Positions 2 to 54,157 of a stretch of DNA of 54,159 nt are shown here, one piece after another. The translations under genes were made by a program, and so were the position numbers. The notes under the pieces were generated by a model that saw only the letters and a program-made list of their open reading frames with translations, did no database searches and was not told the origin of the DNA. How positions within the stretch are numbered: position 1 is the first letter of the stretch; every line of letters begins with the position of its first letter. The stretch comes from Candidatus Omnitrophota bacterium (GTDB lineage: Bacteria; Omnitrophota; Gorgyraeia; Gygaellales; Profunditerraquicolaceae): contig JAQUQW010000006.1 in NCBI GenBank assembly GCA_028716245.1, positions 1 through 54,159 on the forward strand. The letters are read 5' to 3'.

Positions 2-3000
2 TAGATCAGCGGTGCCGTTATCACTAAACTTACTATCCAAATCGGCCCCCTGTGAACTCCCGCCGTCATTCATACCTTTATCTGAATTATCTTGCTTGCC
101 TTCTTCTCGATTCAACTTCCTAAGCAGACCCTGGAGATATTCCTTAGCCGAGTCATTGGTCCAAATACTAGTTTCCTCATTCTCGCCGCCGCCTTTTGAG
201 CTTTTATTCCCTTTTCGCGCGCGGATTAATTCTAGATCCGCCTTCCAATCCTCTTCCAGAACAAACCCGTTTACATGATGTTTGTTAAGATAAAATAATG
301 CCTTGAAAAGTTTTGGGTGGGATTCTAAATACTTTAATTCCCAATTCCGTATCTTTTCTTCGGACAACCTAGGATTAATTAAATGCTTTATTTCGTGGCG
401 GAAAATTACTATAAGGGCGAGGCTTAAGGCGGCGGTTTTGATATTAAGCAAGTAACGGTTAATTTTCAAGTAACCGGTATCGATATCAACCTTGCCAGCC
501 TGCGTAAGCTTATAAGAGATAAACAAAGGTATTTCTCTTTCCGGCGGGGCGTTGGCCAAGCCGATATAAGCTTCTTTTAAACTTTCAATCAATAAATCTC
601 TCTCGCCAGGGTTCAGTTCTCCTTTTTCACATATAATTTTCATATCTCCATTTTTAATAACCGCTTTTGCCAAAACATCGGGAATCCTCAAATAATCCGG
701 GACATTCTCCTTAACAACAGCCATATTCATCTTCGCCGGGTAAGCATACTTAGAATGTTCTTTCTTCAAGTCCGCTTCAGTAAGATTAAATTCCTTCATT
801 AATATCGGAGTCATTACTTCAAAAACTAATAACAACGCGTTAAGTTCAAAATTAGACCTGCTAGGCTCTAATATTTTTATATCCTTAAATTTTCTTATCA
901 TATAACGCGTTTCTTTCTTCGGAGACTCACCCTTAATAGGTATACAAAAATCCGCTAAGCCGGCTAATTCCGAATGCGGATCAGCAGTAATCAAAATAAC
1001 AAATAAATTATCTCCCTTGGCAATTTTTGCCAAATTAATAAGTTCAACCGTATTGCCGCTTCCGCTGACAATCAAAAGTATATCGCGTTGCTTAGGAACC
1101 TTTGTCGGGTTGATAATCGGGCTAATATCAAACTCCCTGCCTTCCGGTTTCATCAACTCTAGCCTTATTTTAAGCATCTCCAGGTCTAAATCCGACCTGC
1201 CTATCGCTCCTAAAAATACCCTTTTCCCATAATAGTTAACCTTCTTTAATATATCCGCTAACTCCGCAATCTTTGAAGCGGGGAATTCCTGGCTAAGCAG
1301 CACGCTTTTTGATCCTTCAATTAACTCTTTCATCGTCAACAATACTTTCTGCGCGTCCTCAATAGTCGCCTCTTGGCGTTTATCCTTTACAATACCGATC
1401 AAACTTTGAGCTACCGCTTCAAAATACAGTAAAACAAGCAGCTCAAACGTGCTTCCTAAAGGAAGAATCTGGGAAAGGTGTTCGTTACCTAAATCATCCT
1501 TTGATTTCCCGGGAAGGATGACAAATGAGGCTTCCTTTAATAATTCCGAAGACGCATTAGAAGTTACGCTAAACACATCAAATCCCAGTCTTTTCGCTTC
1601 CATTGAGTTTGTATTTACCCACCCTGTTCCCATTGAACCGGAAACGGCTAATACCAAATCCCCTTTGTTAACTCCAGGAAGTAATGATTTAAAATCCAAA
1701 ATATATACCTGAATACCTAAGCGTATCAGCCGGCGCGCCAGTATCTTGCCGGCTATCTGAGACCTGCCGGAAGCATTAATAAATAAATTGAATCCACCCT
1801 CTTTCAACCTGATTAAACAATTCAGGAATTCTTGTGTCTGCGCAATAGAGATAGCTGGTATCCCCTTTGCTAAAAACTCAGTTATAAATTCCGCTGAAAC
1901 TACAACATCATCAGCAACTGTTTTTAAGTATTCGTTTTTGGTTTGAATGGGCTTCTTAGCCGCCTCCAAGATAAGTTCCTTTATTATCTTAACTGCCGTA
2001 TAAGGTTTAGCCGCGTTAACTACAGATTCTCCAACAATAATATTATTTACGCCGTTATTGACTAAAGTATTGATAAAATCCTTATCAAACTCTTTCTCTA
2101 ATACCGCGCCCAAGCCCAGGCCTTCTGTTTCTTCACAAACCATGCGCGCCTCGCGCAGGAAAATCTCTTTTCGCTTTGCCTTCTCCGGTTCACTAAGTAA
2201 TAGTTCCTGCCTTTGCTCAGTCATGGATTTATGTAAATAAACCGCGTCCGCGCCAAACACTTTAGCTATAGCGGCTTTCTTTAAAGGATACTTTGTATCC
2301 ATAATGTCAACGATAATCTTAATATTATGCTTCTTGGCTTCTTCTATCGCTTCTTTGATAACCTCGCCTGAACTAAACCCGTAAATAACCACCGCGTCAG
2401 CTTCTTGTTTTGCCGCCGCCGCTATTTTATCAATACAGAAATTCATTACCTCTAAATCAGCGATAATTTCCTTATCAGGGAATTTAGCTTTAAAATTACC
2501 TATAATTTCAATGCCATTATTCATAATTAAACATAACCCCAATTTTACTCCGTCGGCTCCGGCTTTAAATGCCTGTTGGGCAATATACATCGCCTTATTT
2601 TCATCCTCCATATCTAAAGCTACTATAAGCTTCGGCGCTTGCGCCATTGCTTTCTTTATATCCTGTGTTGCCTGCCGGGGATTATCCGCATTATAGATTG
2701 CACCTCCGACAATAATTACTTTGACTCCGGCCCTGACAACATTATAAGCGGTCTTCTGTTTTACTCCTCCGGCAGCGGCAATTGGCACATTTATAGCTTG
2801 AGATATTTTAAAGACATAAGACGGAGGCAATTCCTCGCCTTTTCTTTGGTCGCTTATAGGATTATGGAAACAAATAACTATCAAAGACTCAGATATATTA
2901 ACCGGCTGCAATGCCGCGATTGCCTTTATCCATTTCAAATAAGTTTCCCAATCGCTATCCGGCTCATCCAATCTAAAGTGGTCTTTTAGTCCGATAAGGT

Positions 3001-6000
3001 CAAACATGACTATCTTTTTATATTTTCTGGCGATATTGACCGCCTTTTTCATTTCTGCATAGTCTGCTATTGCCAACATCGCGGCAACATCCGCTCCCGC
3101 TTCAAACGCCAACTCTATCTCATCCGCGTACACCGCTTTTAAGTCAGCGACTATTTTCTTTTCCGGAAATTCTTTCCTTAATCTTTTAACTATGGAAAGC
3201 CCTGCCTCTTTTATCATGTGAGAGGTTATTTTCACGAACGAAGGATTATCTTCAACAATTAATTCCTTATATTTATTAAGTACCTCTTTTAGCTTCTCCT
3301 GGGATTTTTGCGGCAATTTCTCGATCTTTCGCTTATCCATAATAATCTTAAACCCCTCTTGTTTTGCTTTAATAAAACACTCTTCCAAAGTCGCGTAAGG
3401 AGCAAAACCCGTAAGGATTATTGCTATATTAGTAGGATCGATTCCCAATTCTTTAGCCGCTGAGGCGACAATGTCTATCTCAAGGTCGCCAACATCCATA
3501 GTCAAAAACTCTACAGCGAATTTTTTGCCGGAATTGCTTTCTATTGCTTTCTTTAACGCATTCTTTACTCCTATTTTTATTAAAGGGGTTCCGGCCTCAA
3601 CCCAGTCCGCCCCTCCAGCAACTGCTTCCCGGGCGATTCTTATTGCCATTTCTGGATCTATCAAATCTAAAGCTACCTGAAGCAGGGCTTTTTCATTATT
3701 CATCTCTCCGCCATCTTTACTGCCTTGAGACTTAAACACCTCAAATCCCGAAGAAGCCAAAACAATGCGCTGCGGATTACCAAGCAAGGCAAAACCTCCT
3801 TCTTTGCCCAAATCTACTAAACTATGGTTTTTAAGTAGAACCAACTTTTTACTTAACTCTTTTTTCAGTATATTCTCTCTTATTTTAATCTTATTGAGAT
3901 CGGGCAGCGTATAAGAATAATCATAATTGTAATAATCTAAAATGACGGGAACTTCCCAAATTACAACTAAACCATCTGTTTTTAATATACTCTTCATAAT
4001 TGCATCGATGAATCTTTTTGTCCGCTTGGCGTCTTCCTTTAAAATCCAGCCGATGCCTTTAAATATTATGTAATCTAATTTTTCTTCTTCAAGGATACCT
4101 TTTTCTTTAAGCGATCTTATTTTTCTAGCAATAGTATCTATATCCCTGACATCAACGGAAATATTAACAAATTTCTTAAAACCCTGAACATCTTTTAGCG
4201 GAATTTCTTTTTTTAATCCTAATAACTCTTTAGGAACAGGAATAATACCATGCATTTCAACCATTGCATTTTGTAGTGCTTCAACGCTTTTTTCTTCACC
4301 GGTAAATTCATCCTTATCTACATTCACTCCAATAAGCATCCCATCTTTGCTTTTCTCTTTAGACGCTTCAGCTAAAGCCGCTAGAGGAACGAAATCCGGT
4401 CCAATGACCGGGTAAAGCCCAGTCTTCTGCTGTAAATTGAATATCTCAACAGCATATTCCCATAAGATAAGGTATCTCTTCCAATAATCTGTCGAATTTT
4501 TAATTTCATCTAAAAATTTATCTTTGATTATCTTGGCCTCTTTCAAAGTCGCAATCTCCCCACCGTCATTCTTTCCTTCGTTGATAAATCCTGCAGTGGG
4601 ATTATTAATATTAAATTTAGCTTCTGCTAACTGCTTTTCAACATTAGGAATATATTTTTCTATTCCTGCCGAGGAAAGCAACTCTCTCTGCGCCTGAAGC
4701 GCAAGGCTTTCAGCCAAACGGAAATTCCTGTTTTTCTGTTCAGCTATTGCTTCTTTTGTAACTCTTGAATATACCTGGGTGTAAAACCTTATTGCCTGAG
4801 AAGTCCCTGAAGGCCGTATGGTAATAAAATTCTTGCTGTTATAGAATGGCTCGCCTTCTTTTAAACTTGCATCCTCAAAGAAGAACCTGATGCCTTCGTC
4901 CGGAAATCCTGCGTAATGCTGCTCATCGTAACGGCCGGACTTAAACTCTATTGCTCCGATTACTTTTAAACCGCCCAAGACAAATGGCTTAACGCTGCCA
5001 ACATTCTCATTTGCCAGTTTCATCCATTCCTGTGCTTTCTTAAGCAGGTTTATCTTCTCGGTTATTCCTTCCGCCCCTTCAAAAGAACCTACTCGCGGTA
5101 ATGGTTTGTTCGCTGTTGCAAAATGGCCAATTTGCAGATAGATATCGTCTAACAATTCAAATACGGTGGTGTTATTTTCTTTCGCGTAACAGGCGATTTC
5201 AGCAGCTAATATACCGGCAAAAGTCCCGTCTTTATCGTTAACGTGCGCGTCATCCGCCAAAACCTCTCCTTCACGGATAACTCCGCCTAATATACTGAAT
5301 CCATTTGATTCTTCAGCGCCTGCTTCGTTAATAAACCCTAATTTTCTTAACTTCTGGCAGAAATCGGCGATATAGGTGAACCCAACCCATGACCGTTTAC
5401 CATTAAGATATTGTCCTCTTGCTTCTTTTTCATCTTTATCATACATTTCACCTAATGAAGCTACTCCAAATAATGCCGCAACCGCTTCAAGGGCATCGGT
5501 TGTTACATGGCTGAAGGTAATGTAGTGCTTTTTAGGTTCTTCTAATAAGCCTAATTGCTGTTTCTTCATCAGGCGATACCAGATAAGCACTGTCCATACA
5601 TCGTTTGCGGATAATAAACGATATCTCCCAAAAAGATGTTGCTGGTTTTCCGGAACCTTTACTATCCATCCCAACCTATCGGCGTCGGGGTCTGTTCCAA
5701 TTAGCATATCTAATTCATCAAAAGCTTCCTGCCCATACTCGGCAATAAATTCTTTTACTGCAATATTAGCAGATATCGGGTCGCCCGGGTCAGGCTGCTC
5801 GCCCCAGCCGAATGCCGGGAATAAACCATCAAGTACCTGAAGTTTAGTTATAGCCTTGACATCGCTAAATCCCAATTCAGCTAACAATCTCGGCACAGCC
5901 TTGTTGCCTGAACCGTTAAATGCGGAAAAACCAATCTTTAAATTTTTAGCCTGTCGCTTGACGAGTTCTCTATCTAAAATAAATTTCTTGACCTGCTCAA

Positions 6001-9000
6001 CGTGTAAAGTGTGCATATCGATAAAGTATTTAGAATTGTTTACATCTACTGTCTTATAGTCTTTACTTTTAAGCGGTTCTCTGCCGCCAAGCCAAATTAA
6101 CTGTCCTTCTTCCGCCTCCTCCAAAGATTTCAGTTTTATATCCGCGGTAGTCACTTTAGATATGGCAGCCTTGACTTCATTCTTCATCTTTTGAGGCAGC
6201 TGCGAACCGGTAAAATCTGTTATTTTATATCCGTTATATTGAGAAGGATTGTGGCTTGCGGAGATAAGAATACCCAAATCAGCGCGCACTGCTTTTGTTG
6301 TAACGCCGAACGATAATTCTGGAAATGGGCTTGCTTCATCAAAAAGATAGACAGTAAATTTATGCTCTGGGCTTGATTGAGCGATAAAACATTGCGCGAT
6401 CATCTCGGCAAACTCTTCACCTGCAATACGACTATCGTACCCGATTGCAACTTTATGCAATCCTCTTTCTTTTGCGTATTTAATAACGCCTGTGGTGTAA
6501 AGTAATAAGACTATATCATTTATGGTATTTGGCCCTTTAAGTATTCTGGCTGACGGGCCCTCTTCCTTTAAACGCCGCAGTTCTTCCTCTGTCAATGCAG
6601 CCATTCCGCGAATACCGGCTGTGCCAAAGGTAATATCCTGGCGGAACACCTCCACAATATCCTTCCAGCGGCCTTGCTGAATTGCCTCAAAAATGGCTTC
6701 CTGTGTCTTTGGCGATAGCTTCTTGATGTGATCATCGGTCGCCCAGAATTCCAAGTTTTTATAGGCAACCTTCATTGCCTTATTGTAAATCTCATCGGTA
6801 ATCCGCTTGGCATTGTGCTGATCGGTAAGGTATTTCTCTATCTGTTCCTTGGCGAGCCGTAAAAGACCTGCCTCATTCCCACCATCCAATTTTGTTTTGG
6901 AAAGCTTAGTTGACTTTAAACAAACAGGCTTATTATTATCGAAAATATAACCGCTTCCGTTCTCTATGATGTATTCAATTGCAATCGCCTCTCCAGTATT
7001 GATTCTGACTTTGTAGCCTAAAATACACAAGCGCTCGAGTATTATTTCTTTCAACTGCATTAAATCCATAGCCCTGACTGAACCTAATAGATTCTTAATC
7101 ATTAGCATATCTCGATGTAATATAGTACCCTCTCTTAGTTCAGAAAAACTTACATTGCCATGCCCACAATGGAATGTTTCATCTTCAGAATCGAAAGCTA
7201 GACTAAAAGCGAATTCATATGGCATAACTTTACCATTGACTACCTTGTAGGTAATGTACTCTTCCGTATCTGCCCATCTAGATCTTGAACTACCTACAAT
7301 AATATATCCACCTTCCTCCACATGTTCTGCGAGGTTCTCTAGTTCTTCAGAATAGGAATCTTGATAATAAGTCATAACATTGAATGCTCGTACTACTCTT
7401 GCTTTCTTGGATAATCTAAATTTTCTAAAGTCTCCTTGGATGATAGAGAGATTAGAAGTTTGTCTTACATAATGTTCTATAGGATTAAATTTGATGCAAT
7501 TACCATTCATATCTTGATAATCTTTACCTTTGGATTCTCTTAATAGATAATCCCTTAAGCTTAAATATCTCTCGATTTCATACTGGGATATCTTAGAAAC
7601 TTTAGGAACATATTCCATCCAAGTATAGTCTATGTTTATGATCTCACTAGAATTGTCAAAGAGAATTTCGATGTAACCTTTATTTCCCCGAATACGCACC
7701 ACATATGCAGGAACATAAAGTTCAAGGCCTACAACTTCTATATCGGAATACTTTATGCATAATTTTTGGGCTAATTCAATTATAGTGTATGGCGGATAAC
7801 CTGGACCAATATCTAACATCAGCATCTCAGATTTAGCTAACTCTTGCACAATATACTCATCAACATAACTCAATCTCCCTTTGGAAGTAACTATTCGGGG
7901 TTGAATTTGCCTTGCAACAGAAATATCTGTATTGCATAAATAATTAATATCAAATGCCCCTTTTAATTTCATCTCTTTATAGTTCTTCGACAAATGAACT
8001 AACTTTTTCCAATTTTCTTCGTTAATCCATTTTAGTAATTCTCCGTCTACTGCGGGAGTAATTGATACGATGGGCAACTCATTCTTTACTTCGCCAACTA
8101 ACCTTGTATCTCCGTTTTTATTAAGACCGTATTTATAAATTAATTCCATAGCTGAATCGAAACTGCCAGCTTGTAATAGTAGTTGTTCTGTGTTTACACT
8201 AACAAAACCACCTTTTTGCCTAGAGGTCTCTATCTCTATTTGTTTAAATATATGTCTTGCAAACCTGATATTAGCCAACATATAATCAACTACATCTTCT
8301 CCACCCCGACTTCTTATTTGTTCCATTTTCTTATTAAATTCTTCTAAGTACTTATCTGAGACGCCTTTCTTTGTTTCATTATCTGTTTGTATAAAATTAA
8401 TTGTTAGGTCTATACCGAATTCTTTCTTAGTACTTTCTTGGGTTACTTGTAAAACTACAACGTAATACGGGCCTATCTTATTTAATGCGTGTAACCTTTT
8501 AATAAACCCATTTGCAGTATAAGGATGAAGTTTTATATTAAATCCTTTGCTGCATAATTTACTTATGACATTATTTAAAATTCCCCCAAGTTTAGCCCTT
8601 AATTCCTCTTCTGCAATATCCACGTTGGCAGAAATATCAAAATCAGGGTTATTCCCTATATAAGTTAACCTCGCTGTCGAACCAAGATTTTTTACCCAAA
8701 GTAACTTTTTGTCAATGCATTGTTGAATACTAATTCTTATAACATCTATAATAGTTTTTTCGATTTCCTTTATATTAGCGACTTCATTTTTATTCAACTT
8801 AAATTTCTCTATTTCCTGTAACAACATGACTTCAAATACATCTCCAACCACTCTATCAATACAGAGTTCTTTTCCACCGTCTCTTAGGAAATTTATAACT
8901 TTTTTTGCTTCCTTATAAAAAATATTAAAATCTATATCCGGATTAGTTCTATTTAATATTAAAGATTCTTTACTAATGACTTCAGTTAAACTCCTATGCG

Positions 9001-48000: not shown

Positions 48001-51000
48001 AATATCCTTTAGATATAAGAATTATATCTACCAGCTTACTCGCTGTGCGGCCGTTTCCATTATTATAAGGATGTATAATAATAAACTTATAAAAAGTTTC
48101 TACCAGAAGATTTTCTAATTTAGTATTGCCTTTTATCCACATCGTATTAAGCCAATCTATATATTCTTCCATACTGCGAGGAATATCTTTTGGATCAACG
48201 AGTTTTAAATTTTCTCTGGTACCTATAACCACCTTCTCTGTTCTTAAACCTAAGTAAGAAGGAGAATTTGGATTGCCTGTTTCATCTAGCTCTCTCCCGC
48301 GAGCAACGATAACTTCTTTGTGCAATTTGTTTATAATCTCTTGGCTGATTATTCTTGGGGCATCTTTACTTAGCAGGCCGCCGTCCAAAGCGCGGTTAAT
48401 CTTTTCAGCGGATCTTTCTTCCTTTAACCTTTGAAGTTCTTTTAATATCCTGCCTCTGCCGATTTTCTTAATAATCGCGCCCCTGATATCTTCCATTGAA
48501 ATCTGAAGCGGGAGCATTCGCGCATTTATCGCTTTCAGGTTAAATTCTATATCCACCGCCGCGGAAAGCAGGTTTTCTTCCGGCCCGCAAAGCATTAAAC
48601 GCGCGTCAACAATCTCTGCTCCCGCGTTTAATGCCGCCTTTAATGCGCTAAAACCTCCTGTTTCCGTATTTGTCGATGGCACGCGAGATTCAGCAGAAAA
48701 ACTATTTTTATCTAACCGATCTAACGTAAATTGCATGGGCTTAGCTATCTTGCCTTTTACATATAGAATACCTCTCCCTTTACGGCTCTTCAGGTTGTTA
48801 ATTAAACCAATAAATAATAAATTTGATATTCTGTGCCCTTGATAATCGGGAGCAACAAATAGGAATGATACTTCAAGCGCCAAAGGATTACCCCTGTCTT
48901 CATCCACATCGACAAAACCAACGGCCTGTCCTTGTTTATTGCATACAACAACAGAATTACCGCTTAGAGATATTCCTCGCTTGCGCATAAAATCAATTAC
49001 CTGAGGGTGATAGTTTAATTTACTGCCGATATCTTTAAATGCTTTTATCTCAACCTGTCTTGCCATCACGCGCAGCAGGGCTTTCTTATGGGCTTCACGA
49101 TAAGCGGGAACATCAGGATAGATATTTGCCAAAAGCGGACCGAGATGTCTATTTAATACAATGAATTTCTCTAAAGACAGGCTTTCATTTTTACCGCAAA
49201 AGATCTCTATTAACCCGGCATAGTAATCTTCGATTACGCCTTCTGCTTTGGTCATAGCATTAAGCCCTTTTATTTTTTCATTTTCAGTTTGGGCGTCAAA
49301 CACCTTCCAATGCCCTTCTAAAATCCTGCCTATAATTTCAGCGTTATTAACCTGTTTAACTATATCGGCTATATTTTTCCCGCTTAATTGCGGCCATTCG
49401 CCGGTATTAATTATCCGGGTAACGGCGGATTTGAGTTCAGTTGAGACATCTTTGGATTCGTAAAAATATTTCTTCATCACTGCTTTATATATATCTTTAT
49501 TGCCGGCGTTAATGCTAAAACTTTCCTTTATTATCCCATACGCTTTTTCTTTAATCCCCATCGCAGTTGCTATCAATATCAATTGTAGATAGAAACCAAA
49601 ATCTATTTTCTTGGCTTCTTTTATTGATAAAGGTTTTGCGATTATGCTTTTCAGGATATAAAGGTAAGTTTCTCTGATATTGGAGGTTGGGAGAGCGTAT
49701 TCGGAAACCTTCCCCGCCGGCGTAGCTACGACAAACTTCTTGCCCTCTATTATGAGGTTATTGAAAACCTCATCCCGAAGCTTAAGCTGTTCAGAAACCT
49801 CCTGTAATAACATCGAGTTACTTTCTTTACCCACAAAATATTTAAATAACATATTCGATTCTCTCGATATCTCTGTAGTAACTTCTGGGGGATAAATCTC
49901 TTTGCGCCTATTAGCTTCCGCGATTACTTTTTCATATAAAATATATTGTTTACGGATGGCGTTCCTGAATTCCCTTACCTTTTTTGCCCTTGCGAAATCT
50001 TTTAATGAATATTTCAATGTCATTACTGTGTCTTGAAATGTCCCAACGGCGGCTGCTGCGCCCTGCACATTTTCGGATTTTTTGAGATGCCCCAACTTTT
50101 CCTCCAGCCCCCGGATCTCTTCCGCGTTAATGATTACTCTTAATGAATCTATTCCTCGTGATATTATGTTAAAAGTTTCTTGGGGATAAGCCCTCCCCTC
50201 TTCTCCGGCTTCCTCAAGCGCTTCTTTGAATAAATCATATTTTTCAGAAAATCCTTTTTCAATATTTTCATATCTTCCGTCATTGAACCAGATTGACTCC
50301 CCGGTTAATTTCTTGGATGCTTGTATAAGCCTCTTTATCGGATAAAGCCTGTTTTCTTGATTCGCTTTATTTATTTCTGTTAATGCTGCATTGAAGTCAA
50401 ATTTATCTTCTAGCACTCCGCCGTCGGCGATAATCAGCTCACCTTTTGCTTCTAAATCAAAACGTACCCTAAACCTCTCTACTCCGCCAACTAGAGCTTT
50501 ATCTGCTTCTTTTAGCATTACCCTTACTTTTAAACTATCTGCTGCCTTCTCTTCAAATTTTTTATAGAACCGAACTGCTTTTTTATTGTCTTCTCTAACC
50601 CACAACAATGCCCATTTTTTCTTCTCAACATTTTTAATATGCCTTAAACCTGCTTCTAATAATTTAGTCCCGATCCCCCCATTTTTGAGTGAAACTGCTA
50701 TGTAAGGAATAAGAGAAACATTACTCAAGGCCTCTAAATCTACATCCTCTACAATTACATACCCTACATAGGCATTGTCTTTGATGGCAAACCATACTCT
50801 ACTCTGTTGCGCAAAACCTTTATCTGGCTGGCCGGTAATTAATTTCTTAATCAGTAAGTTATGATCTACGCCGTCTTCTTCGGGTAATCCTGCCAAAGCG
50901 TTGATCTGTCTAATGATTGCGACCACTTCCGCGCTATCCAGGCCTAGCTCTTTAGTCGTCTTAATAGCAATGTTACCGCCGTCAAGAGAAACTTCTCTTG

Positions 51001-54000
51001 TTATCAGTTGTTCCGGAGACCCCTTGAGGTTCTTGCTCTGGAGGAGGGAATTTCTCAAGAGGCCTCCAGGAACAACAATAGCCGGCTCGATTAAGGAGAT
51101 ACCTGCCACGGTAAGTATCCCTAATGTAAGCAGCGGCTGGGTAACAAATAAAATAGCCCCGACCAACGCTAACACAAACCAACCTGCCACGGTAGGTTGA
51201 ATAGACCTGGTTGAGCCAGGGCTAAATCTTGCTGAATTAGTTAGTTTCGACTGTATTGACCCTATAGACTGGAACGTTCTGGCGGGCGCGGCTGATACAA
51301 TACCTGATATGGTCGGCGACCGAACCGACAAGCTCTTTCCATGCATCTGCCTGGGCATTATGGGCATAGACGGAGCCTGAATCTTTAACCAGGAAGATCC
51401 TAATCTTGTTACTGCCGTGCTCACGGGCTGCGGCAAAGGTTGAGTAGTCGCTTGTGGAATCGATGATGTGGTGAATCTTAATGGCTTCGAGCTTAATGGG
51501 AGACATAGCACACCTCCTTTTAAGGTAGTGGTTAAGGTTGAAATAATAATAGCCGCGAATGCTATTCCTGTTAAATAAAGAATAGCCTGCGGCTTAGTTA
51601 AGGTGTTATGTATGGAATTTATTAGGGTTTGAGGAGCTAAAGCGGAAAGGCCAAATAGCACTGCGGCAGCTATTAAGGCATTGATAAGCTGCGCAGGCGG
51701 GCCGCGCACAAGGCGTGCGCCAAGCTTGGCCGGATAATTAACTAATCTTGTATAAAAACGGTTTAATTTACCGGCTTCTCTGCCAACATGCTCTTTAGAT
51801 TCAACATCTCCAATTGAACTATCTGTCTCATCTCCTGCAACCGGCGAATTCTGTACTGATTGTCTAACTCTGCCATTGTTTCCCTCATTTCCTGAATTTT
51901 TATTGGACTTAACATTTTTTCCTCCCGTGGCTAATTGGTTAATTGCATTTACCACAAAACGCACAATCTTAACCAATGGAGGAGCCAATGAGAAAATCGA
52001 CTTATCAATGTTTGTCTGGGATATCGGCAGTGATTTAGCTTCTTTTACTTCGGACTTGGAAATACCGCCTAAGGCTTTTCTTACGGAAGCGATTAAACTG
52101 CGGCCTGAACCAAATAGGCACCCTGCCAATTCAGCTAAAGCATCCTTTAAGTTGGCATCTTGAACCGGCAAGAAGAAAGCGTTTTCATGGCCATTTCTAT
52201 ATGGGAACCTGCCAGAATCCGGTAAGGCGTTATTGGCCCTGCGCTGCACACCCGGTAATGACAATCCGCTAATCACCCTAAATACGCTTGCCGCCATCTC
52301 AACTATACTGCTTAGGCCCGCTCGAATTGCCCCAAGCTCAATCTTTATCGCGTTTATCGCTAACCCACCGTCTGATGCGTATCTGCCTACAGAATTATTT
52401 AAGATATCGAATACGTTATTCAATATGTCAAAGGTATTCTTGGCCTTGTCTTTATTCTCTGCTACAACCGTCTGATCGCTGATGGATTCAGCTGTTTCAA
52501 CAGCATCTGCCGCTGCTCTTGCTTCCAATTCGCCTCTTACATAGGCATATTCTCTTAACGCCTCAAATGTATTGGTTAACTGAATAAGTAATACAAACAC
52601 AGCTTCAAACTGTGACACAGAAAGCCCAAATCTATTCATAAGACGATGGGCAAAGCGAAGCTCGCTTCCGCGTAAACGTCCTAATCCGCGTAATGCGATA
52701 GCGTTCATAAGCTTTTTAACAAGAGGCGCAACGATATCATCTTCGCGGCGGACAGCTTTATCACTTGAACCAAGCTGAATAAGATAATTCAGCAAATTTA
52801 TAGCCGCTTTCTGATTTTTCGTGAGGTTCTCTAAGGCGCTGGCGGAATTATTAAGGACATCTATTGCATTACGGAGATCGGTGTCATTGCGAGCGGAGCG
52901 AAGCAATCTTAATTCTAACTGATTGGCTAAACTGCGGAAGGTATTGGCAAGTTCGGCGAATATAGCTTCCGGAGGGCTAAGGCCATTGCTTATTTTGAGA
53001 ACAGAAGAAAGACCTTCCACATCCCCTATTTTTACTGTCCCGGTTGCGTCGCAAGGAGCCGCGGACGAAGCGGCAACCCCAGCAGCTGCTCCACCATGGC
53101 CCATGTCATCACCGGCTGCCTGAATACCGGTGTTTGCCGGAGCATTTGCTCCTGTTGCATCTGCATCGCTAGCCCCTGAATTGGTACTTCCCGGATTATT
53201 TCCTGCGACTGAACCTGCGCCGCCATTGCCGCCGTTATTATTATTTGCATTGCCATTGTCACCATTGTTGTTACCATTATTTGTATTACTATTGCTATTT
53301 GTATTATCGGTATTGCTATTTGCGCTATTGCTTGCACTGCTGCTTGTGCCGCTGTTGCTATTATTGTTAGCATCTATACCAGTTCCACCAACATTCTTAA
53401 TTGCTTTCTGCTCTGTTTCACTTAATAAGTTACCTTCTAATTTTTCACTCTTAATTACCCCTTCTTCTACAATCAATATAAATCCACCATTAATTATAAA
53501 TGATTCATCAAGCTTAATCTCGCCATAACCAGCAACATGGTTATCTCCATTATCTTCTGCATATCTAATTGTTGTCCCCTTAATACCATATATTTGTAAA
53601 ATGTGATACTCATCTTTCCCAGAAGGCCGCACTATACTTACTTTATCAAGATTTCTCTTAATTATACCAATGGCCTGATCCATTTTTCCCACTTTTATCG
53701 CGCTAGGCTTTTCTTGCCTTATAGATTCTGCCTCTTTGTACTCTCCTGCATTTTCGTGTTCTGTAGCAACCTCATCATAAACCTGTCTAATAGTCTGTAA
53801 ACCAGTATACAAATCCTTAACTACATATGAGCCAAACTTAGCGGCACCTACCAATTCACGAAGAAGTTTATCCGCTCTCTCCCTAACCCTAAAATTCTTA
53901 GCTATGCCAATCAAGCAATCCACCACATCCACTACCCCTGTACGCCGACGTAGCTCATCTGTACGCGCATGTGCATCAATTGCTATTTCTTTAACCTTAG

Positions 54001-54157
54001 TTACCTCTGTAGCTGTTCTTATTGCTTCTTGTTTTGCTGCTCCTGCTTCTTGTTTTGCTGCTCCTGCTTCTTGTTTTGCTGCTCCTGCTTCTTGTTTTGC
54101 TGCTCCTGCTTCTTGTTTTGCTGCTCCTGCTTCTTGTTTTGCTGCTCCTGCTTCTTG
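2..54157 (-). CDS. Giant multidomain protein, partial at both ends (at least 18,052 aa); Omnitrophota-like giant gene
   Basis: The same minus-strand frame (codon first base = 1 mod 3) translates as sensible protein at both window ends and in every stretch I checked by hand, with no TAA/TAG/TGA. No ORF in the supplied track uses this frame, as expected if it never meets a stop. More than 25 recognisable domains lie in this one frame. Confidence 0.93.
330..640 (-). other. Small zincin-like HExxH module of the giant CDS
   Basis: ANAPPERE...LIVIFRHEIKHLINP; HEIKH at 383-397. Confidence 0.5.
750..1340 (-). other. hxlB: 6-phospho-3-hexuloisomerase-like SIS domain, copy 2 (domain of the giant CDS)
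   Basis: VFLGAIGRSD, ILLIVSGSGNT, ILITADPHSELAGLADFCIPIKG, SRSNFE, C-terminal KKEHSK: PHI/SIS pattern, partly degenerate. Confidence 0.75.
1390..1880 (-). other. hxlB: 6-phospho-3-hexuloisomerase-like SIS domain, copy 1 (domain of the giant CDS)
   Basis: LFINASGRSQIAG, KGDLVLAVSGSMGT, ILPLGSTFELL match PHI motifs. Confidence 0.8.
1970..2630 (-). other. hxlA: 3-hexulose-6-phosphate synthase/OMPDC-family barrel, copy 3 (domain)
   Basis: PKLIVALD, FKAKFPDKEIIADLE, GADAVYLH, IIIVGE; the family DxK lysine is replaced by E. Confidence 0.75.
2650..3240 (-). other. hxlA: 3-hexulose-6-phosphate synthase barrel, copy 2 (domain)
   Basis: LRKEFPEKKIVADLK, AFEAGADV, VPIAAAGGV, AGVKVIIVGGAIYNADNP. Confidence 0.85.
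3330..3700 (-). other. Partial (N-terminal half) hexulose-phosphate synthase barrel, copy 1 (domain)
   Basis: LLQVALDLID...AGGADWVEAGTPLIK is the typical HPS N-terminus; the sequence after it is divergent and truncated. Confidence 0.7.
4600..6870 (-). other. pgm: Phosphoglucomutase/phosphomannomutase (alpha-D-phosphohexomutase), full-length domain
   Basis: FGTAGIRG, IGYDSR, ISASHNP (Ser at 6254-6256), GTDPDADR, GAEESNGF, DKDG, IRPSGT. Confidence 0.95.
6960..7960 (-). other. Class I SAM methyltransferase-like domain
   Basis: MLDIGPGYPP, VVGLE, IIQGD, VRAFNVMTYY, VEEGGYIIVG. Confidence 0.6.
8050..8800 (-). other. Pol-beta-superfamily nucleotidyltransferase (class I CCA-adding/OAS-like) domain
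   Basis: LGSTARLTYIGNNPDFDI (GSxARxT...DxD), then IDL and KGGFVSVNTEQLLLQAGSF, which resembles the class I CCA-enzyme GGFSG..ELL...GSF segment. Confidence 0.6.
8950..9920 (-). other. 2H phosphoesterase-like domain with an internal insertion
   Basis: Two Hx(S/T) motifs: SALHMSI (~9730) and GLHISLGR (~9130), about 200 aa apart. Confidence 0.5.
10200..11400 (-). other. HAD-superfamily (type IIB, PMM/Cof-like) domain
   Basis: AVDMDLT (DxDxT), VSANE, FGGSTSIDC..DANKKGA, AIDDEMSSNGVGFD. Confidence 0.65.
12050..12540 (-). other. Nudix-fold (IDI-like) domain with a degenerate Nudix box
   Basis: HKTGQWHANSQIL, VLIQVR, SAAGHLFSDENYDKAAERIIFDETGI. Confidence 0.7.
12880..13440 (-). other. gmk: Guanylate kinase-like domain
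   Basis: GPSGSGKST Walker A at 13388-13411, RTTTRNPR, HRFVSEKQF, HYGFRYA. Confidence 0.85.
13560..14190 (-). other. Uridine kinase/PRK-like P-loop domain, degenerate
   Basis: VIGIIGLPYVGKKTLA, DVLIITGSY, IDFLTGI...TRLERKI. Confidence 0.6.
14250..15010 (-). other. HD-domain phosphohydrolase, copy 2
   Basis: QHSLQV...AALLHDTG...DHMQIGA...IEVHD...READR. Confidence 0.85.
16560..17090 (-). other. HD-domain phosphohydrolase, copy 1 (GlnD-HD-like)
   Basis: THTLEV...LLHDLGK...HPEIGA...EKH...IAD. Confidence 0.8.
17350..18400 (-). other. GDP-hexose phosphorylase (VTC2/GDPGP1-like HIT) domain A
   Basis: GFNF, PLAKGHIMILP, KIGFNSWGAWGSVNHQHLQG (17942-17990), FFEVGG. Confidence 0.85.
18780..19720 (-). 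other. HIT-type nucleotidyl phosphorylase (VTC2/DUF4922-like) domain B
   Basis: FNTSPIW...HMTV...HQ, NGW...AGASQAHSHAQ, SFNIL, ASSEFG. Confidence 0.7.
20150..22010 (-). other. L-fucose-1-phosphate guanylyltransferase-like domain (pyrophosphorylase half of FKGP), copy 1
   Basis: IPDPEGVRVGNGGA, ILIQAGGFGTRY, SKTLMPIP, LNGD, LGIV, FLEKP, YIDYGD, then a beta-helix-like segment; no GHMP kinase half follows. Confidence 0.8.
22380..23150 (-). other. DUF4922/Ap4A-phosphorylase-like HIT domain C
   Basis: VQINPNR...GCFLCPEN...PNPNPY..NHVV...FNSLNSAASSGHFHYQ...YNILF...FPR...CEMSGML. Confidence 0.8.
23290..24020 (-). other. YdcF/DUF218 (ElyC/SanA-like) domain
   Basis: LLMLLGNDD, IICCGG, TGEALIMANILIKQGVPKERIRLELRSQNTNDN, ILMQKPLQQRRA. 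Confidence 0.85.
24070..25620 (-). other. Sugar-1-phosphate nucleotidyltransferase (FKGP-like), copy 2
   Basis: VVITAGGQAQR...IGK, IYGD, ATKYGM, KFQEK, WYDTG, and a C-terminal DDVK...IFPV...SIED segment like fucose pyrophosphorylase. Confidence 0.65.
25840..28000 (-). other. pgi: Glucose-6-phosphate isomerase-like (double SIS) domain with a C-terminal extension
   Basis: VITSGIGANEM, MSRSGSTKETL, GDIGGR, QLLNEGGNK, and a NPAVK segment correspond to PGI motifs. Confidence 0.7.
28380..29200 (-). other. Class I SAM methyltransferase with an N-terminal Zn-ribbon
   Basis: CAICGS...KCHNDGFMWLNPQP; VLEVGFASGYLL; EGVDIS; SFDVV...DTLEHIPSP...ILKPEG. Confidence 0.9.
29260..29640 (-). other. Cupin domain (WbuC-like)
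   Basis: PHVH...HEIMIVLSG, GDII...GHSL, LLEIKQGPY. Confidence 0.75.
30090..30480 (-). other. Second small zincin-like module
   Basis: INGPPLKI...NTVHI...YFVAHHEFILHAY; same layout as the 330-640 module. Confidence 0.4.
30640..31900 (-). other. Radical SAM domain with a SPASM/twitch extension
   Basis: CQYHCPTC (Cys codons at 31766, 31754, 31745), FTGGGEPLL, FTDG, RISFNAG; C-terminal CLAC...DGTVYHC...YGNLKEQTLAEIWNS...CPPVC. Confidence 0.95.
34090..34790 (-). repeat. HEAT/PBS-lyase-like repeat array (about 7 units)
   Basis: Repeated VRSxAAxALGxLG...AVEPLIxAL and GPAAKAAIPALIEAL units, with exact nucleotide duplications inside the array. Confidence 0.92.
35132..35326. repeat. Near-perfect 99-bp in-frame tandem duplication (33 aa)
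   Basis: Copies start at 35132 and 35231; they encode LLEEKVELEKQALLDANKRNQDQVQIxxKEIL. Confidence 0.95.
36820..39750 (-). other. FKS/callose-synthase-like beta-1,3-glucan synthase (GT48) catalytic domain with flanking transmembrane segments
   Basis: RLWASYSFQPLSRTIRGMMYY (~38470-38535), EGKPEGQTNGIRYVRGE, IDVNQDFYLE, GFPEHI, VRFHYGHPD (~37862-37888), VNEDIFGG, GKAREV, GMGGGEQ, all in the canonical FKS order. Confidence 0.92.
43130..44080 (-). other. Clan GH-A (beta/alpha)8 glycoside hydrolase (GH2-TIM/GH158/GH72-like)
   Basis: IRGV, GINTIRTY, HPAVLMWEFGNE (acid/base Glu at 43703-43705), DPNHPV, VDVFGLNAY, ISETG (nucleophile Glu at 43421-43423), TWQDEYWK. Confidence 0.88.
46305..46333 (+). 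promoter_or_regulatory. Sigma70-type promoter for the nested antisense operon
   Basis: Perfect TTGACA at 46305-46310, 17-nt spacer, TG-c-TAATTT extended -10 at 46325-46333; the ATG at 46341 sits at the expected start site. Confidence 0.65.
46341..46553 (+). CDS. Nested antisense small membrane protein (70 aa, 2 TM), probably leaderless
   Basis: MEEDVFWTDSRRQLIAKALINLFQALVIALFISEAF...IAAIFVCPTKDPKED; upstream promoter; its 3' end carries the SD of the next ORF. Upstream in-frame starts at 46299 and 46317 are possible. Confidence 0.7.
   Translation: MEEDVFWTDSRRQLIAKALINLFQALVIALFISEAFAKATALWKLFFLSAMLSSLIAAIFVCPTKDPKED
46555..46644 (+). CDS. Nested antisense single-TM micro-protein (29 aa), translationally coupled
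   Basis: TAAGGAGG at 46541-46548, 6 nt before ATG 46555, which is 1 nt after the upstream TGA; MTALITLTIICLVILIWFGIDQYRHKHVH. Too short for the supplied ORF track. Confidence 0.7.
   Translation: MTALITLTIICLVILIWFGIDQYRHKHVH
46800..47500 (-). other. Membrane-embedded HExxH (M50/DUF3267-like) domain
   Basis: A TM helix leading into MHLPHELLHYAIF (HELLH at 47375-47389), followed by several hydrophobic helices. Confidence 0.5.
47850..48360 (-). other. Fic/Doc domain
   Basis: INKLHKEV...LGLRTEKV...VDPKDIPRSMEEYIDWL...FIIIHPYNNGNGRTASKL (His at 48071-48073). Confidence 0.9.
48720..49020 (-). other. GNAT acetyltransferase-like domain B
   Basis: AVGFVDV...LEVSFLFVAPDYQGHRISNLL. Confidence 0.7.
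50500..50900 (-). other. GNAT acetyltransferase domain A
   Basis: YVGYV...PYIAVSLKNGGIGTKLL...LLWVREDNKKAVRFYKK. Confidence 0.85.
51237..51506 (-). CDS. Nested same-strand, different-frame gene (89 aa hypothetical protein)
   Basis: AAGGAGGT SD at 51519-51512, 5 nt before the ATG; globular-looking sequence; upstream promoter. The giant frame across this stretch is S/P/T-rich and looks out of frame. Confidence 0.75.
   Translation of the reverse strand: MSPIKLEAIKIHHIIDSTSDYSTFAAAREHGSNKIRIFLVKDSGSVYAHNAQADAWKELVGSVADHIRYCISRARQNVPVYRVNTVETN
51546..51574 (-). promoter_or_regulatory. Sigma70-type promoter for the nested 89-aa gene, embedded in an inverted repeat
   Basis: TTAACA (51574-51569), 17 nt, TATTAT (51551-51546). 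Inverted-repeat arms AGCCGC/GCGGCT and GCTATTC/GAATAGC span 51551-51594. Confidence 0.55.
53030..53370 (-). repeat. Low-complexity Asn/Ser/Gly/Ala-rich linker of the giant CDS
   Basis: DANNNSNSGTSSSASNSANSNTDNTNSNSNTNNGNNNGDNGNANNNNGGNGGAGS... Confidence 0.9.

Follow-up and report, generated by a model that had tools for sequence, protein, structure and literature searches.

The 54,159-nucleotide stretch of DNA analysed here, referred to below as the window, is best read as an internal piece of one real giant gene of Omnitrophota that is Archaeovorin-like and belongs to the multi-enzyme metabolic class of giant proteins (probability about 0.9). The preliminary description had claimed an uninterrupted ORF of at least 18,052 codons across the window, and six-frame translation of the whole 54-kb window bore this out, as the minus-strand frame running from position 54157 to position 2 contained no stop in 18,052 codons. 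With more than 25 unrelated domains it had counted slightly too many: ∼23 domain instances from ∼19 families emerged when Pfam, NCBIfam, PDB and fold libraries were searched, and roughly half of the length was without annotation.

The reading frame, its relatives and known giant proteins

Amino acid k of the translation corresponds to window position 54157−3(k−1), counting downwards, and all features given below lie on the minus strand. The ORF (2..54157, open at both ends) contrasted with the other five frames, which held 1339, 1040, 584, 1548 and 1929 stops with all three stop codons abundant, and the probability of finding no stop over 18,052 codons was ∼1e-601 as calculated from base composition (random-codon stop p = 0.074). 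The coding signal was continuous, since the other two sense-strand frames showed 14–60 stops in every 400-codon block and first-position G stayed at 0.27–0.46 across all such blocks. Synonymous codon usage was similar among six 3,000-codon segments (r = 0.70–0.92) and therefore gave no sign of chimeric assembly; GC was 0.32–0.49 over 1.2-kb blocks and GC3 0.27–0.50 along the ORF. An artefact, be it chimeric assembly, chance-open non-coding DNA or reassigned stop codons, could draw on the repeat at the contig end, on this spread of GC and on the absence of an exact 60-mer from the left window end in the two collections scanned, genome and metagenome contigs (protein database searches gave no self-match either), but is effectively refuted by the chance value and the abundance of the three stop codons in the remaining frames, by the presence of ∼23 domains in one frame with catalytic motifs intact, by the uniform codon usage and by relatives that have locus-filling ORFs of the same kind. 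Neither Rfam families nor tRNAs were detected on either strand of the whole window, and on the plus strand only two ORFs reached 150 aa; both are antisense, measure 153 aa and were treated as spurious. An internal-repeat architecture was rejected, as self-BLAST gave just two short internal similarities.

Both termini of the gene had been placed outside the window. This holds for the C-terminal end, which is open at the window edge, and very probably also for the start, although short of strict proof. No in-frame start codon occurs before codon 76 (GTG) and no ATG before codon 159; the start was placed outside because the 75 codons ahead of codon 76 are stop-free and form a perfect in-frame 7-aa repeat (P ∼0.003 by chance). 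A perfect 21-bp tandem repeat of 6.5 copies (54023..54159), encoding (KQEAGAA)n, lies at the right window end and probably marks the point where the assembly broke, and a wrong number of copies in it would leave the frame unchanged, its 21-bp unit being divisible by 3.

No taxonomic marker gene was present inside the window, and the placement in Omnitrophota from the window therefore rests on homology. Prokaryotic matches to the glucan-synthase (GT48) region came almost exclusively from Omnitrophota MAGs and were incomplete ORFs that take up the whole of a short contig. Among 25 GTDB-representative loci with GT48 relatives, 16 were titled Omnitrophota and six Planctomycetales/Planctomycetia, and in 24 of the 25 the ORF occupied the fetched locus from end to end, the longest having 7,521 codons (22.5 kb). 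For one of these six, Bin_37_1_1 / SBBM01, the NCBI title clashes with GTDB, which gives p__Omnitrophota c__Koll11 (Seymour 2023 supplement), and this weakens a Planctomycetota origin as suggested by such titles. Relatives of a second independent module (aa 13981–14680) were found in Omnitrophota MAGs only, and the earlier attribution to an Omnitrophota giant gene thus agrees with the relatives of both modules.

The closest sequence relative found was locus L004 (JAGOOP010000003.1, 130,558 bp) of the Omnitrophota MAG Go_SlDig_bin_84, in which a giant ORF likewise fills the whole fetched locus. It is 51.5% identical over 2,151 aa (aa 4180–6169), with collinearity from aa 3260 onwards that takes in both the GH158-like loop and the GT48 module, but shows no match upstream of aa 3260, its contig stops inside the module, and it differs in GC (0.47 versus 0.39 in the window) and in codon usage (r = 0.30). 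Loci L003, L016 and L022 retain the GT48 block, in part with the radical SAM block in collinear order; module order is not kept among the relatives and content varies too. The NUDIX-HAD module occurs elsewhere as a stand-alone 1,013-aa ORF, and the GDPGP1-like module has a stand-alone counterpart of 1,554 aa (48% identity over 679 aa), a gene with PF07959, PF26217 and PF26216. Modules can thus stand alone, so that the proposed string of ‘formerly separate enzymes’ is backed for two modules as regards their existence as separate genes, but the direction of evolution is not thereby shown.

Giant ORFs of this type have been described before (West-Roberts 2023; Seymour 2023; Nielsen and Lui 2026). 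The giant protein of Ca. Velamenicoccus archaeovorus LiM comprises 39,678 aa (PMC10066038), the figure of >39,000 aa in the preliminary description being correct; its likeness to the window product is drawn from published descriptions. Among 116 Velamenicoccia species genomes, 77 carry giant ORFs >20 kb (PMC10066038), and a published clustering of proteins of ≥10,000 aa includes 5,761 of them (Nielsen and Lui 2026, bioRxiv 10.64898/2026.06.07.730766). The Archaeovorin type is described as a gene >90 kb with a protein >30,000 aa (West-Roberts 2023, bioRxiv 10.1101/2023.11.21.568195); for the gene seen here, the window ORF gives a minimum of 18,052 codons. Shared with Archaeovorins are the stop-free ORF of tens of kb, many helices, HEAT repeats, large unannotated stretches and poor sequence conservation, as well as a glycosyltransferase, a glycoside-hydrolase-like domain, a SAM methyltransferase, a borderline NUDIX-like domain and a phosphoglucomutase in one frame. 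The published domain set consists of glycosyltransferase, methyltransferase, glycoside hydrolase, peptidase and NUDIX, and a divergent SecA DEAD-like domain is present in ‘most’ Archaeovorins (West-Roberts 2023); within the window, which covers part of the gene, Pfam revealed no peptidase domain (C39, S8), and PF07517 (SecA DEAD-like) gave no match at E ≤ 0.05. Furthermore, GT5 and GT1 are highlighted for Archaeovorins (West-Roberts 2023), whereas the glycosyltransferase of the window is a GT48.

Nielsen and Lui (2026) define a multi-enzyme metabolic cluster class of proteins of ≥10,000 aa with many Pfam families, none dominant by copy number. The window product has at least 18,052 aa and ∼19 families with at most two copies each apart from the HEAT repeats, and shares with this class a PGM/radical SAM sugar-metabolism set alongside a methyltransferase/GNAT/HD set as well as transmembrane anchoring, its ∼24 helices in 18 kAA comparing with a mean of 22 for proteins ≥10 kAA (Nielsen and Lui 2026). 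On the other hand, starch synthase (GT5), GT1, histidine kinase and receiver domains, frequent in that catalogue, are absent in the window. PF02364, GH158 and RuMP enzymes are not mentioned in the main text of Nielsen and Lui (2026), PF02364 or glucan synthase does not occur in the Seymour 2023 supplement, and the GT48 module was not found described in the literature searched.

Membrane topology and the GT48 module

Hydropathy scans located ∼24 hydrophobic helices, all in the first third of the chain (aa 824–6426), and no convincing transmembrane helix in the remaining 11,626 aa. A first cluster of ∼4 helices (51065..51688, aa 824–1031) is followed by a second of ∼9–10 (45644..47734, aa 2142–2838), and the last convincing helix lies at 34880..34936 (aa 6408–6426). 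Two loops between helices, of 1,671 aa (40631..45643, aa 2839–4509) and 626 aa (34937..36814, aa 5782–6407), are proposed to be non-cytoplasmic. Both are devoid of Cys, against 7.9 residues expected in the larger one, and the helix-free tail has 0.63 Cys per 100 aa; the 626-aa loop also contains a 99-bp (33-aa) tandem duplication (35132–35326). Flanking K/R charges fit the topology model for seven of the eight helices checked, the orientation of the helix at aa 5763 being ambiguous with positive charges on both sides. The helices and the two Cys-free loops accord with the ‘membrane and exported segments’ noted earlier. We infer from these features a polytopic inner-membrane protein that would expose both GNATs, the Fic domain, the catalytic part of the GT48 module and the long tail of 11,600 aa that lacks helices to the cytoplasm, and the loops at aa 2839–4509, with the GH158-like glucanase, and aa 5782–6407 to the outside.

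The small domains between the first two helix clusters comprise two GNAT acetyltransferases, one at 50549..50818 (aa 1114–1203; Pfam PF13508/PF00583, 42–47 bits) and one at 48779..48967 (aa 1731–1793; PF13673, 37–43 bits), and a Fic domain at 47981..48361 (aa 1933–2059; PF02661, 37–38 bits; FICD structures E 1.6e-8) with a divergent motif, HPYNNGNGRTAS. The large Cys-free loop carries the N-terminal half of a GH158-like clan GH-A TIM barrel (43493..43945, aa 3405–3555), which matched PDB 9oro (E 1.2e-12) and 6pal (E 2e-8) and Pfam Glyco_hydro_2_C at 30 bits. The alignment spans residues 55–199 of 424, so that the nucleophile region lies outside it, and the acid/base motif GNE is kept; the region is conserved in the relative loci L004, L008, L013 and L026. 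The substrates of GH158 enzymes are β-1,3-glucans (PMC13195107, PMC7157763).

Between the two Cys-free loops lies a module resembling Fks1 and callose synthases (36815..39634, aa 4842–5781), which scored 271.4 bits with PF02364 (gathering cutoff 37.2) and consists of four helices, a GT-A domain predicted to be cytosolic (aa 4980–5535), as is the GT48 catalytic domain in Fks1 (PMC10499315), and five further helices. It matched Fks1 with E 3e-40, the aligned part being Fks1 residues 659–1491 only, and a 1,100-aa query of the region was ∼30% identical to plant callose synthases over 57% of its length. Mutagenesis of Fks1 has shown E851, D1080, K1082, D1102/N1104, E1155, K1172/E1173, H1195, N1220/E1221 and K1246/R1248 to be required (PMC10499315). 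Identical residues were found for E851, K1082, D1102, N1104, E1155 and H1195 (E5136, K5337, D5357, N5359, E5390 and H5430) as well as for N1220, E1221, D1222, K1246 and R1248 (N5451, E5452, D5453, K5477 and R5479), and the active-site substitutions were D1080 to E, E1173 to D and K1172 to A. In the AlphaFold model, the glycosyltransferase core reached pLDDT >90 and the transmembrane part, mostly <60, was of low confidence; Foldseek matched the model to Fks1/Fks2 (E 3e-28, TM 0.52–0.55, ∼910–970 columns), with BcsA, HAS and CesA ranked next. Alignment and model together point to a putative membrane-embedded sugar polymerase with its active site largely kept, carried on one chain with some twenty enzymes that act on sugars and nucleotides. 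The order of helices, GT-A domain and helices and the predicted fold are shared with eukaryotic GT48 enzymes (yeast Fks1/Fks2, plant callose synthases), but the module lacks both the N- and the C-terminal regulatory domain of Fks1 and, unlike the eukaryotic enzymes, sits inside a giant bacterial polypeptide. BcsA and BcsZ offer a functional analogy only, namely a processive membrane glycosyltransferase with its own channel and an outer-side glucanase of matching linkage type; BcsA, however, is a GT2 and a protein separate from BcsZ, whereas the GT48 module shares one chain with the glucanase-like domain. A PilZ domain for c-di-GMP was not seen in the window.

Enzymes of the helix-free tail

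The tail begins with HEAT/alpha-Rep-like repeats (34178..34840, aa 6440–6660; PF13646, 89–99 bits; alphaRep structures E 1e-63). These are followed by a radical SAM domain with SPASM (30734..31804, aa 7452–7808; PF04055, 64–65 bits; PF13186, 35–37 bits), which has the motif CQYHCPTC at aa 7464 and lies in a block 49% identical in locus L003, and by a class I SAM-dependent methyltransferase (28457..28912, aa 8416–8567; PF13489, 79–81 bits). A weak nucleotidyltransferase/fucose-pyrophosphorylase-like match (25133..25546, aa 9538–9675) reached 23.8 bits with PF07959 (cutoff 34) and 20 bits with PF00483. Further downstream, DUF218 (aa 10160–10229; PF02698, 39–42 bits) and DUF4922 (aa 10345–10465; PF16269, 31–33 bits) share the interval 22763..23680, and the fucose-pyrophosphorylase/GDPGP1-like module mentioned above occupies 20111..22063 (aa 10699–11349; PF07959, 75 bits). 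The next 1,720 aa (14951..20110, aa 11350–13069) form an orphan stretch with no significant Pfam match and no homologue, a homology search with aa 10961–13069 giving only two matches, both limited to the first 18% of the query.

Beyond it, a borderline HD phosphohydrolase (14618..14944, aa 13072–13180; PF01966, 20–25 bits) has the H...HD...D pattern, and the interval 12857..14164 encodes a weak uridine-kinase-like domain (aa 13332–13508; PF00485, 20–21 bits) and a guanylate kinase (aa 13571–13767; PF00625, 48–52 bits; TIGR03263, 61 bits) with the P-loop GPSGSGKS. A degenerate NUDIX domain (aa 13914–13976; PF00293, 20.4 bits, below the 21.1 cutoff, its box being degenerate) adjoins the 700-aa module at aa 13981–14680 (together 10118..12418), of which the C-terminal ∼400 aa are predicted to adopt the fold of HAD-IIB sugar-phosphate mutases/phosphatases (DMDLT at aa 14269; model pLDDT 82; Foldseek 4bnd E 5e-7, plus SupH and PMM1/2) and which had 40 homologues in 1.84e9 representatives. 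This HAD-type module had been ‘dark’ to annotation, and its model reveals another sugar-phosphate enzyme fold. Phosphoglucomutase/phosphomannomutase domains I–IV (4736..6532, aa 15876–16474; PF02878, 82–84 bits; PF02879, 35–37 bits) contain the catalytic SASHNP at aa 15966. The interval 908..3253 encodes a 3-hexulose-6-phosphate synthase (HPS) barrel (aa 16969–17174), a second barrel fused to 6-phospho-3-hexuloisomerase (PHI; aa 17175–17591) and an extra SIS domain (aa 17689–17750). HxlA (HPS; TIGR03128) scored 211.6 bits versus a cutoff of 200, a score that sums matched stretches of tandem barrels, HxlB (PHI; TIGR03127) 147.9 versus 160 and HxlAB (NF041755 RuMP_HxlAB) 311.7 versus 500; the region matched PDB 9lj9 at E 2e-36, and a homologue search with aa 16950–17760 returned just three weak matches (30–36% identity). 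For the C-terminal 402 aa, a peptide-pattern search of metagenome contigs found no relative. Catalytic motifs were intact in the radical SAM, guanylate kinase, PGM, HAD and HD domains. Enzymes of the types found in the tail require ATP, GTP, SAM, Fe-S clusters or acetyl-CoA.

A possible polysaccharide pathway and alternative readings

A tentative mechanism, to which we give rather less than even odds, is that of a polysaccharide factory in one chain; gene identity and this explanation taken as a whole come closer to an even chance without reaching it. HPS-PHI, SIS, PGM and the HAD-type mutase/phosphatase would interconvert sugar phosphates, and the two fucose-pyrophosphorylase/GDPGP1-like modules, the HIT-like DUF4922, NUDIX, HD, guanylate kinase and uridine-kinase-like domains would make or edit NDP-sugars and recycle nucleotides. 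The GT48 module would polymerize the activated sugar and thread the resulting glucan across the membrane in a channel of its own, the radical SAM/SPASM domain, methyltransferase and GNATs may modify the product, and the outward GH158-like β-1,3-glucanase could trim or release the polymer, by analogy with BcsZ for BcsA. The product might be a surface coat or an attachment matrix. GNAT, Fic and HEAT domains have no obvious role in a polysaccharide pathway. A strict assembly line is also made less likely by the differing order of modules from one relative to the next.

Published accounts of such proteins favour a role in adhering to prey and breaking down cell walls (West-Roberts 2023; Kizina 2022, cited in PMC10066038), and on this view most of the chain would be an extracellular weapon that binds or digests the envelope of host or prey, the glycosyltransferase, glycoside-hydrolase and sugar-phosphate modules acting on prey-derived glycans. 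Most annotated Archaeovorin domains have indeed been predicted to be extracellular, with adhesion and cell-wall digestion proposed (West-Roberts 2023), V. archaeovorus cells that adhered to larger cells showed a threefold rise in giant-ORF peptides (PMC10066038), and the window offers a GH158-like glucanase and HEAT repeats. We nevertheless consider this reading unlikely here, as the 11,600-aa tail has neither a helix nor an export signal and its enzymes need ATP, GTP, SAM, Fe-S and phosphosugars, Cys is absent from the two putative outer loops and present in the tail, and Pfam found no adhesin-type domain (dockerin, TSP3, discoidin, laminin-G) in the window. The catalytic domain of GT48 is moreover cytosolic in Fks1 (PMC10499315), and some extracellular placements were regarded as ‘highly unlikely’ by West-Roberts (2023) themselves.

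Rather improbable, too, is a membrane-tethered set of independent enzymes and regulators without a single pathway, in which GT48 would be one of many activities and fusion would serve co-localization, stoichiometric expression or genome economy. It is in line with the varying order and content of modules among relatives, with modules that move or occur as separate genes, with the regulatory-type GNAT, Fic, HEAT and HD domains, with the co-occurrence of signal-transduction/regulatory and sugar-metabolism modules elsewhere (Nielsen and Lui 2026) and with a GC3 range compatible with mosaic origin. However, the recognizable catalytic modules are strongly skewed to sugar-phosphate/NDP-sugar chemistry and adjoin a glucan synthase and a glucanase of the matching linkage family, and the order from GT48 to radical SAM recurs in L003, L016 and L022. 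[quoted passage not shown] This possibility we judge poor, since Pfam detected neither peptidase nor intein domains in the window and 18,052 codons would hardly stay free of stops if ribosomes did not translate across the borders between domains. Internal translation starts were rejected, as in-frame ATGs with a Shine-Dalgarno-like motif were not enriched (seven versus 12.3 ± 3.6 in codon shuffles), and so were internal promoters and terminators, the respective signals being at chance level within the window.

As a giant ORF, the window is one more partial example in a catalogue of thousands and alone changes little. Its value is that of a readable case, in which membrane and enzyme parts separate cleanly, catalytic motifs are intact and the modules appear to converge on a route from hexose phosphate via NDP-sugar to β-glucan, with a matching glucanase across the membrane. 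The polysaccharide-factory reading challenges the prevailing ‘extracellular prey-digesting’ interpretation for this subclass of Omnitrophota giants. The GT48 module was found in at least 25 species-level genomes, and it is conceivable, although doubtful, that a clade of prokaryotic GT48 synthases occurs only as modules in Omnitrophota giants that build the cell's own β-glucan coat or host-attachment matrix and are not weapons. Such a bacterial clade is notable in that the literature covered treats GT48 as a fungal and plant family only and, if true, would bear on the origin of the eukaryotic β-1,3-glucan synthases.

The reading frame and its ends

Six-frame translation revealed no stop among the 18,052 codons of the minus frame running from base 54157 down to base 2, confirming by computation the uninterrupted ORF of at least 18,052 codons that had been proposed in the preliminary description; each of the five remaining frames contained 584 to 1,929 stops. 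Residues are numbered such that codon k begins at base 54157-3(k-1), the N-terminal side thus lying at the right end of the window. With a random-codon stop probability of 0.074, derived from the base composition of the strand, the chance of a stop-free run of this length is ~1e-601. The two alternative sense frames carried 14-60 stops in each block of 400 codons, first-position G amounted to 0.27-0.46 in every such block of the ORF, and the coding signal runs continuously along it. As relative synonymous codon usage correlated between six 3,000-codon segments (r = 0.70-0.92), the ORF shows no sign of chimeric assembly. Stop-codon reassignment was ruled out as a cause of the open frame, since all three stops are plentiful in the other frames, and an artefactual origin of the ORF is effectively excluded. 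Composition was strongly uneven within the ORF (GC 0.32-0.49 and GC3 0.27-0.50 in 400-codon blocks), with contrasting blocks such as aa 6801-7200 versus aa 13601-15600; variation on this scale is far more than sampling noise would give, and it would fit modules of mosaic origin.

The ORF was open at the C-terminal end of the window. On the N-terminal side, which holds (KQEAGAA)n and a low-complexity stretch rich in N, S and G, the earliest in-frame start candidate is a GTG at codon 76 and the first ATG is codon 159. As a perfect in-frame heptapeptide repeat fills codons 1-75, the true start codon very probably lies beyond the window. The right end itself is held by a perfect 21-bp tandem repeat of 6.5 copies (54023-54159, minus strand), on account of which the assembly likely stopped; because 21 is divisible by 3, errors in copy number at this repeat could neither mask a frameshift nor introduce one. 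Neither strand of the window yielded a tRNA or an Rfam family match. On the plus strand, just two ORFs reached 150 aa, both of them antisense frames of 153 aa.

Enzyme modules along the chain

Pfam and NCBIfam scans covered the ORF in four large chunks and again in twenty tiles of 1,000 aa each, and were complemented by PDB sequence searches and two structure models. More than 25 unrelated domains had been announced for it; a many-domain chain was indeed recovered, with the lower count of ~23 domain instances from ~19 families over the Pfam, NCBIfam, PDB and fold searches. About half of the ORF length carried no annotation, and self-comparison revealed almost no internal repeats. Two GNAT acetyltransferases (aa 1114-1203 and 1731-1793) are followed by a Fic domain (aa 1933-2059, window 47981-48361), half of a GH158-like TIM barrel with a GNE acid/base motif (aa 3405-3555), a GT48 glucan-synthase module (aa 4842-5781, window 36815-39634) and HEAT repeats (aa 6440-6660). 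Further downstream are a radical SAM domain with SPASM (aa 7452-7808), a class I methyltransferase (aa 8416-8567), a weakly matching nucleotidyltransferase (aa 9538-9675), DUF218 with DUF4922 (aa 10160-10465), a fucose-pyrophosphorylase/GDPGP1-like module (aa 10699-11349), an HD domain (aa 13072-13180), a uridine-kinase-like domain with a guanylate kinase (aa 13332-13767), a degenerate NUDIX domain (aa 13914-13976), a HAD-IIB module (within aa 13981-14680) and a four-domain phosphoglucomutase (aa 15876-16474). Near the window end, two hexulose-phosphate-synthase (HPS) barrels, a phosphohexuloisomerase (PHI) and an extra SIS domain (aa 16969-17750, window 908-3253) form a set of ribulose-monophosphate-pathway enzymes in the sequence HPS, HPS-PHI and SIS; the closest database relatives of the HPS-PHI block reached only 30-36% identity.

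Since the catalytic signatures are intact in the radical SAM domain (CQYHCPTC), the guanylate kinase (GPSGSGKS), the phosphoglucomutase (SASHNP) and the HAD module (DMDLT), and in the HD domain as well, the modules look like working enzymes rather than relics. The Fic motif (aa ~2030-2041), HPYNNGNGRTAS, diverges from the canonical HxFx(D/E)GNGRxxR in having Y for F, N for D/E and S for the last R, and given these replacements its target or chemistry may differ from standard AMPylation.

Within the unannotated half, aa 13981-15180 had 40 homologues among 1.84 billion representatives, most of them long proteins or long fragments reaching 7,452 aa. AlphaFold modelling of aa 13981-14700 from an alignment gave a pLDDT of 82, and the C-terminal ~400 residues of the model matched HAD-IIB sugar-phosphate mutases and phosphatases, namely 4bnd (an atypical alpha-phosphoglucomutase), SupH and PMM1/2; on the strength of this modelled fold, at least one dark module is predicted to be a further sugar-phosphate enzyme. 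The 1,720 residues of aa 11350-13069 (window 14951-20110) matched no family, and a word-indexed search of 5.8 billion proteins returned no homologue for them. Coding bias was normal across this orphan stretch, and aa 11960-12283 within it showed a weak match (25%) to one of the relative loci, L029.

A glucan-synthase module and its predicted membrane topology

The GT48 module scored 271 bits with PF02364 and aligned with residues 659-1491 of yeast Fks1 (E 3e-40). Among the Fks1 residues required by mutagenesis (PMC10499315), counterparts were found at E5136, K5337, D5357, N5359, E5390, H5430, N5451, E5452, D5453, K5477 and R5479, and the module departs from Fks1 by the replacements D1080 to E, E1173 to D and K1172 to A (Fks1 numbering). 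Most active-site columns were at least 90% conserved over eight Omnitrophota fragments and fourteen eukaryotic sequences. In the structure model, the glycosyltransferase core had a pLDDT above 90 and the helix bundle was weak; the best fold matches of the model were Fks1/Fks2 (E 3e-28, TM 0.52-0.55), followed by BcsA, hyaluronan synthases and CesA. The putative outer loop at aa 2839-4509 matched GH158, a family that acts on beta-1,3-glucans (PMC13195107, PMC7157763). In the literature covered, GT48 is treated as a fungal and plant family. No mention of a bacterial GT48 clade, and no work on GT48 in bacteria or Omnitrophota, was found in a literature coverage that was limited, which amounts to absence of evidence only; glucan synthase, callose and hexulose are not mentioned in the main text of West-Roberts 2023 or Nielsen and Lui 2026, and PF02364 is absent from the Seymour supplement.

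Hydropathy analysis placed ~24 convincing helices, all of them in aa 824-6426, and none in the last 11,626 residues. As the GT48 domain of Fks1 is cytosolic (PMC10499315), this domain was used as the anchor of a topology model in which helices were counted outwards. By this count, two loops would lie outside the cytoplasm: aa 2839-4509, which holds the GH158-like domain, and aa 5782-6407. The GNAT and Fic domains, the GT48 core and the entire tail would be on the inner side. Flanking K/R residues fitted the model in seven of the eight helices checked. Helix 5763 was ambiguous, with positive charge on both sides. Cysteine content lends the model independent support: the loop at aa 2839-4509 (1,671 aa, window 40631-45643) contains no cysteine versus 7.9 expected (P ~4e-4), the loop at aa 5782-6407 (626 aa, window 34937-36814) likewise has none, and the tail has 0.63 per 100 residues. 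Enzymes of the tail type depend on ATP, GTP, SAM, Fe-S clusters and phosphosugars, all of which are cytoplasmic. In these giants, the absence of cysteine may serve as a simple sequence criterion for telling outside segments from inside ones. The second cysteine-free loop also holds a 99-bp tandem duplication (window 35132-35326; two copies, 96% identical) doubling a 33-aa unit, which is a recent in-frame expansion. The topology model is in line with Nielsen and Lui 2026, who favour an 'inner-membrane-anchored cytoplasmic-domain' reading, and is at odds with the mostly extracellular placement of West-Roberts 2023, which the same authors flagged as partly unlikely.

Relatives and possible function

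A search with the glucan-synthase region returned nine prokaryotic fragments (34-59% identity) ranked above ~fifty plant callose synthases, each filling a short contig and nearly all named Omnitrophota. A pattern search of GTDB representative genomes with their alignment yielded 25 loci, and in 24 of them the GT48-bearing ORF ran from one end of the fetched locus to the other (up to 22,565 bases). Fks1/callose-synthase-type GT48 modules with an intact active site recur in no fewer than 25 species-level genomes (L003-L027), of which nearly all are Omnitrophota; the modules almost always lie within locus-filling giant ORFs. The best relative, contig JAGOOP010000003.1 of the Omnitrophota MAG Go_SlDig_bin_84, shared 51.5% identity over 2,151 aa and was collinear with aa 3260 to 6169, where that contig ends. 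The order GT48 then radical SAM/SPASM recurs, being found in L003, L016 and L022; outside this pairing, relatives differ in module order. By title, 16 of the 25 loci are Omnitrophota and six Planctomycetales or Planctomycetia (L003, L010, L014, L016, L018 and L024). One of the latter, Bin_37_1_1 (SBBM01, L016), is p__Omnitrophota c__Koll11 (class Velamenicoccia) in the supplement of Seymour et al. 2023, and the remaining five may be similar legacy labels; the codon usage of Bin_37_1_1 was nearest to that of the window (r = 0.96). The fragment most similar to the GT48 region (58.6% over 403 aa; protein P0002) fills the 4,026-bp contig JBQSHT010000209.1 with one ORF, like the Omnitrophota fragments, and has a B12-binding radical SAM domain immediately after GT48; it was deposited as 'Candidatus Njordarchaeales archaeon', probably through mis-binning.

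The HAD module, used as an independent query, matched two GTDB loci only, both Omnitrophota, once inside a long ORF (at least 6,577 aa) and once as a free-standing 1,013-aa NUDIX and HAD-IIB ORF (JAHITY010000009.1, 230-3268) corresponding to aa 13885-14671. The GDPGP1-like module shared 48% identity over 679 aa with a stand-alone 1,554-aa gene directly downstream of another giant ORF. On that contig (JBFOMO010005885.1, 1-16737), the end of a giant ORF of >3,300 aa, which runs off the contig, is followed by the stand-alone gene; next come a gene of 248 aa and a Gp49/HTH pair resembling a toxin-antitoxin module. As both modules are also found as stand-alone genes, modules exist fused as well as free. 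The earlier proposal of a string of formerly separate enzymes fits this to the extent that the modules occur in both states, which do not indicate the direction of change.

We consider the locus to be an Omnitrophota-type giant gene (probability about 0.9). A single-chain polysaccharide factory is a tentative reading, to which we give somewhat less than an even chance: tail modules would provide and modify sugar phosphates as well as NDP-sugars, besides recycling nucleotides; glucan would be polymerised and exported by the GT48 module and trimmed by the outer GH158-like domain, by analogy with BcsA and BcsZ; and the result would be a coat or a matrix for attachment. Counting against it are the variable module order of relatives, the unannotated half of the chain, and the GNAT, Fic and HEAT domains, which have no clear role in polysaccharide synthesis. 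The chain might instead be a prey-directed surface weapon, or a tethered collection of enzymes serving no single pathway. It might also be a polyprotein processed into separate products; against this, Shine-Dalgarno sequences with ATG were not enriched (7 versus 12.3 +/- 3.6), and promoter-like and terminator-like sites were no more frequent than by chance.

Of 116 Velamenicoccia species genomes, 77 contain giant ORFs of >20 kb, and the 39,678-aa protein of V. archaeovorus carries 42 helices (PMC10066038). Reported sizes reach 85,804 aa (West-Roberts 2023) and 147,155 aa (Nielsen and Lui 2026), and a set of 5,761 proteins with 10,000 aa or more has been clustered. The present ORF is therefore a new but truncated addition to a known kind. 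It falls in with the 'multi-enzyme metabolic' class and shares most Archaeovorin features. Neither a SecA-like nor a peptidase domain lies within the window, and 18,052 codons are a lower bound on the total length, as the gene runs off both ends. The ORF itself is ordinary for Omnitrophota. The arrangement of GT48, GH158 and precursor-supply modules has, as far as found in the literature, not been described before, and it points to a concrete, testable function.
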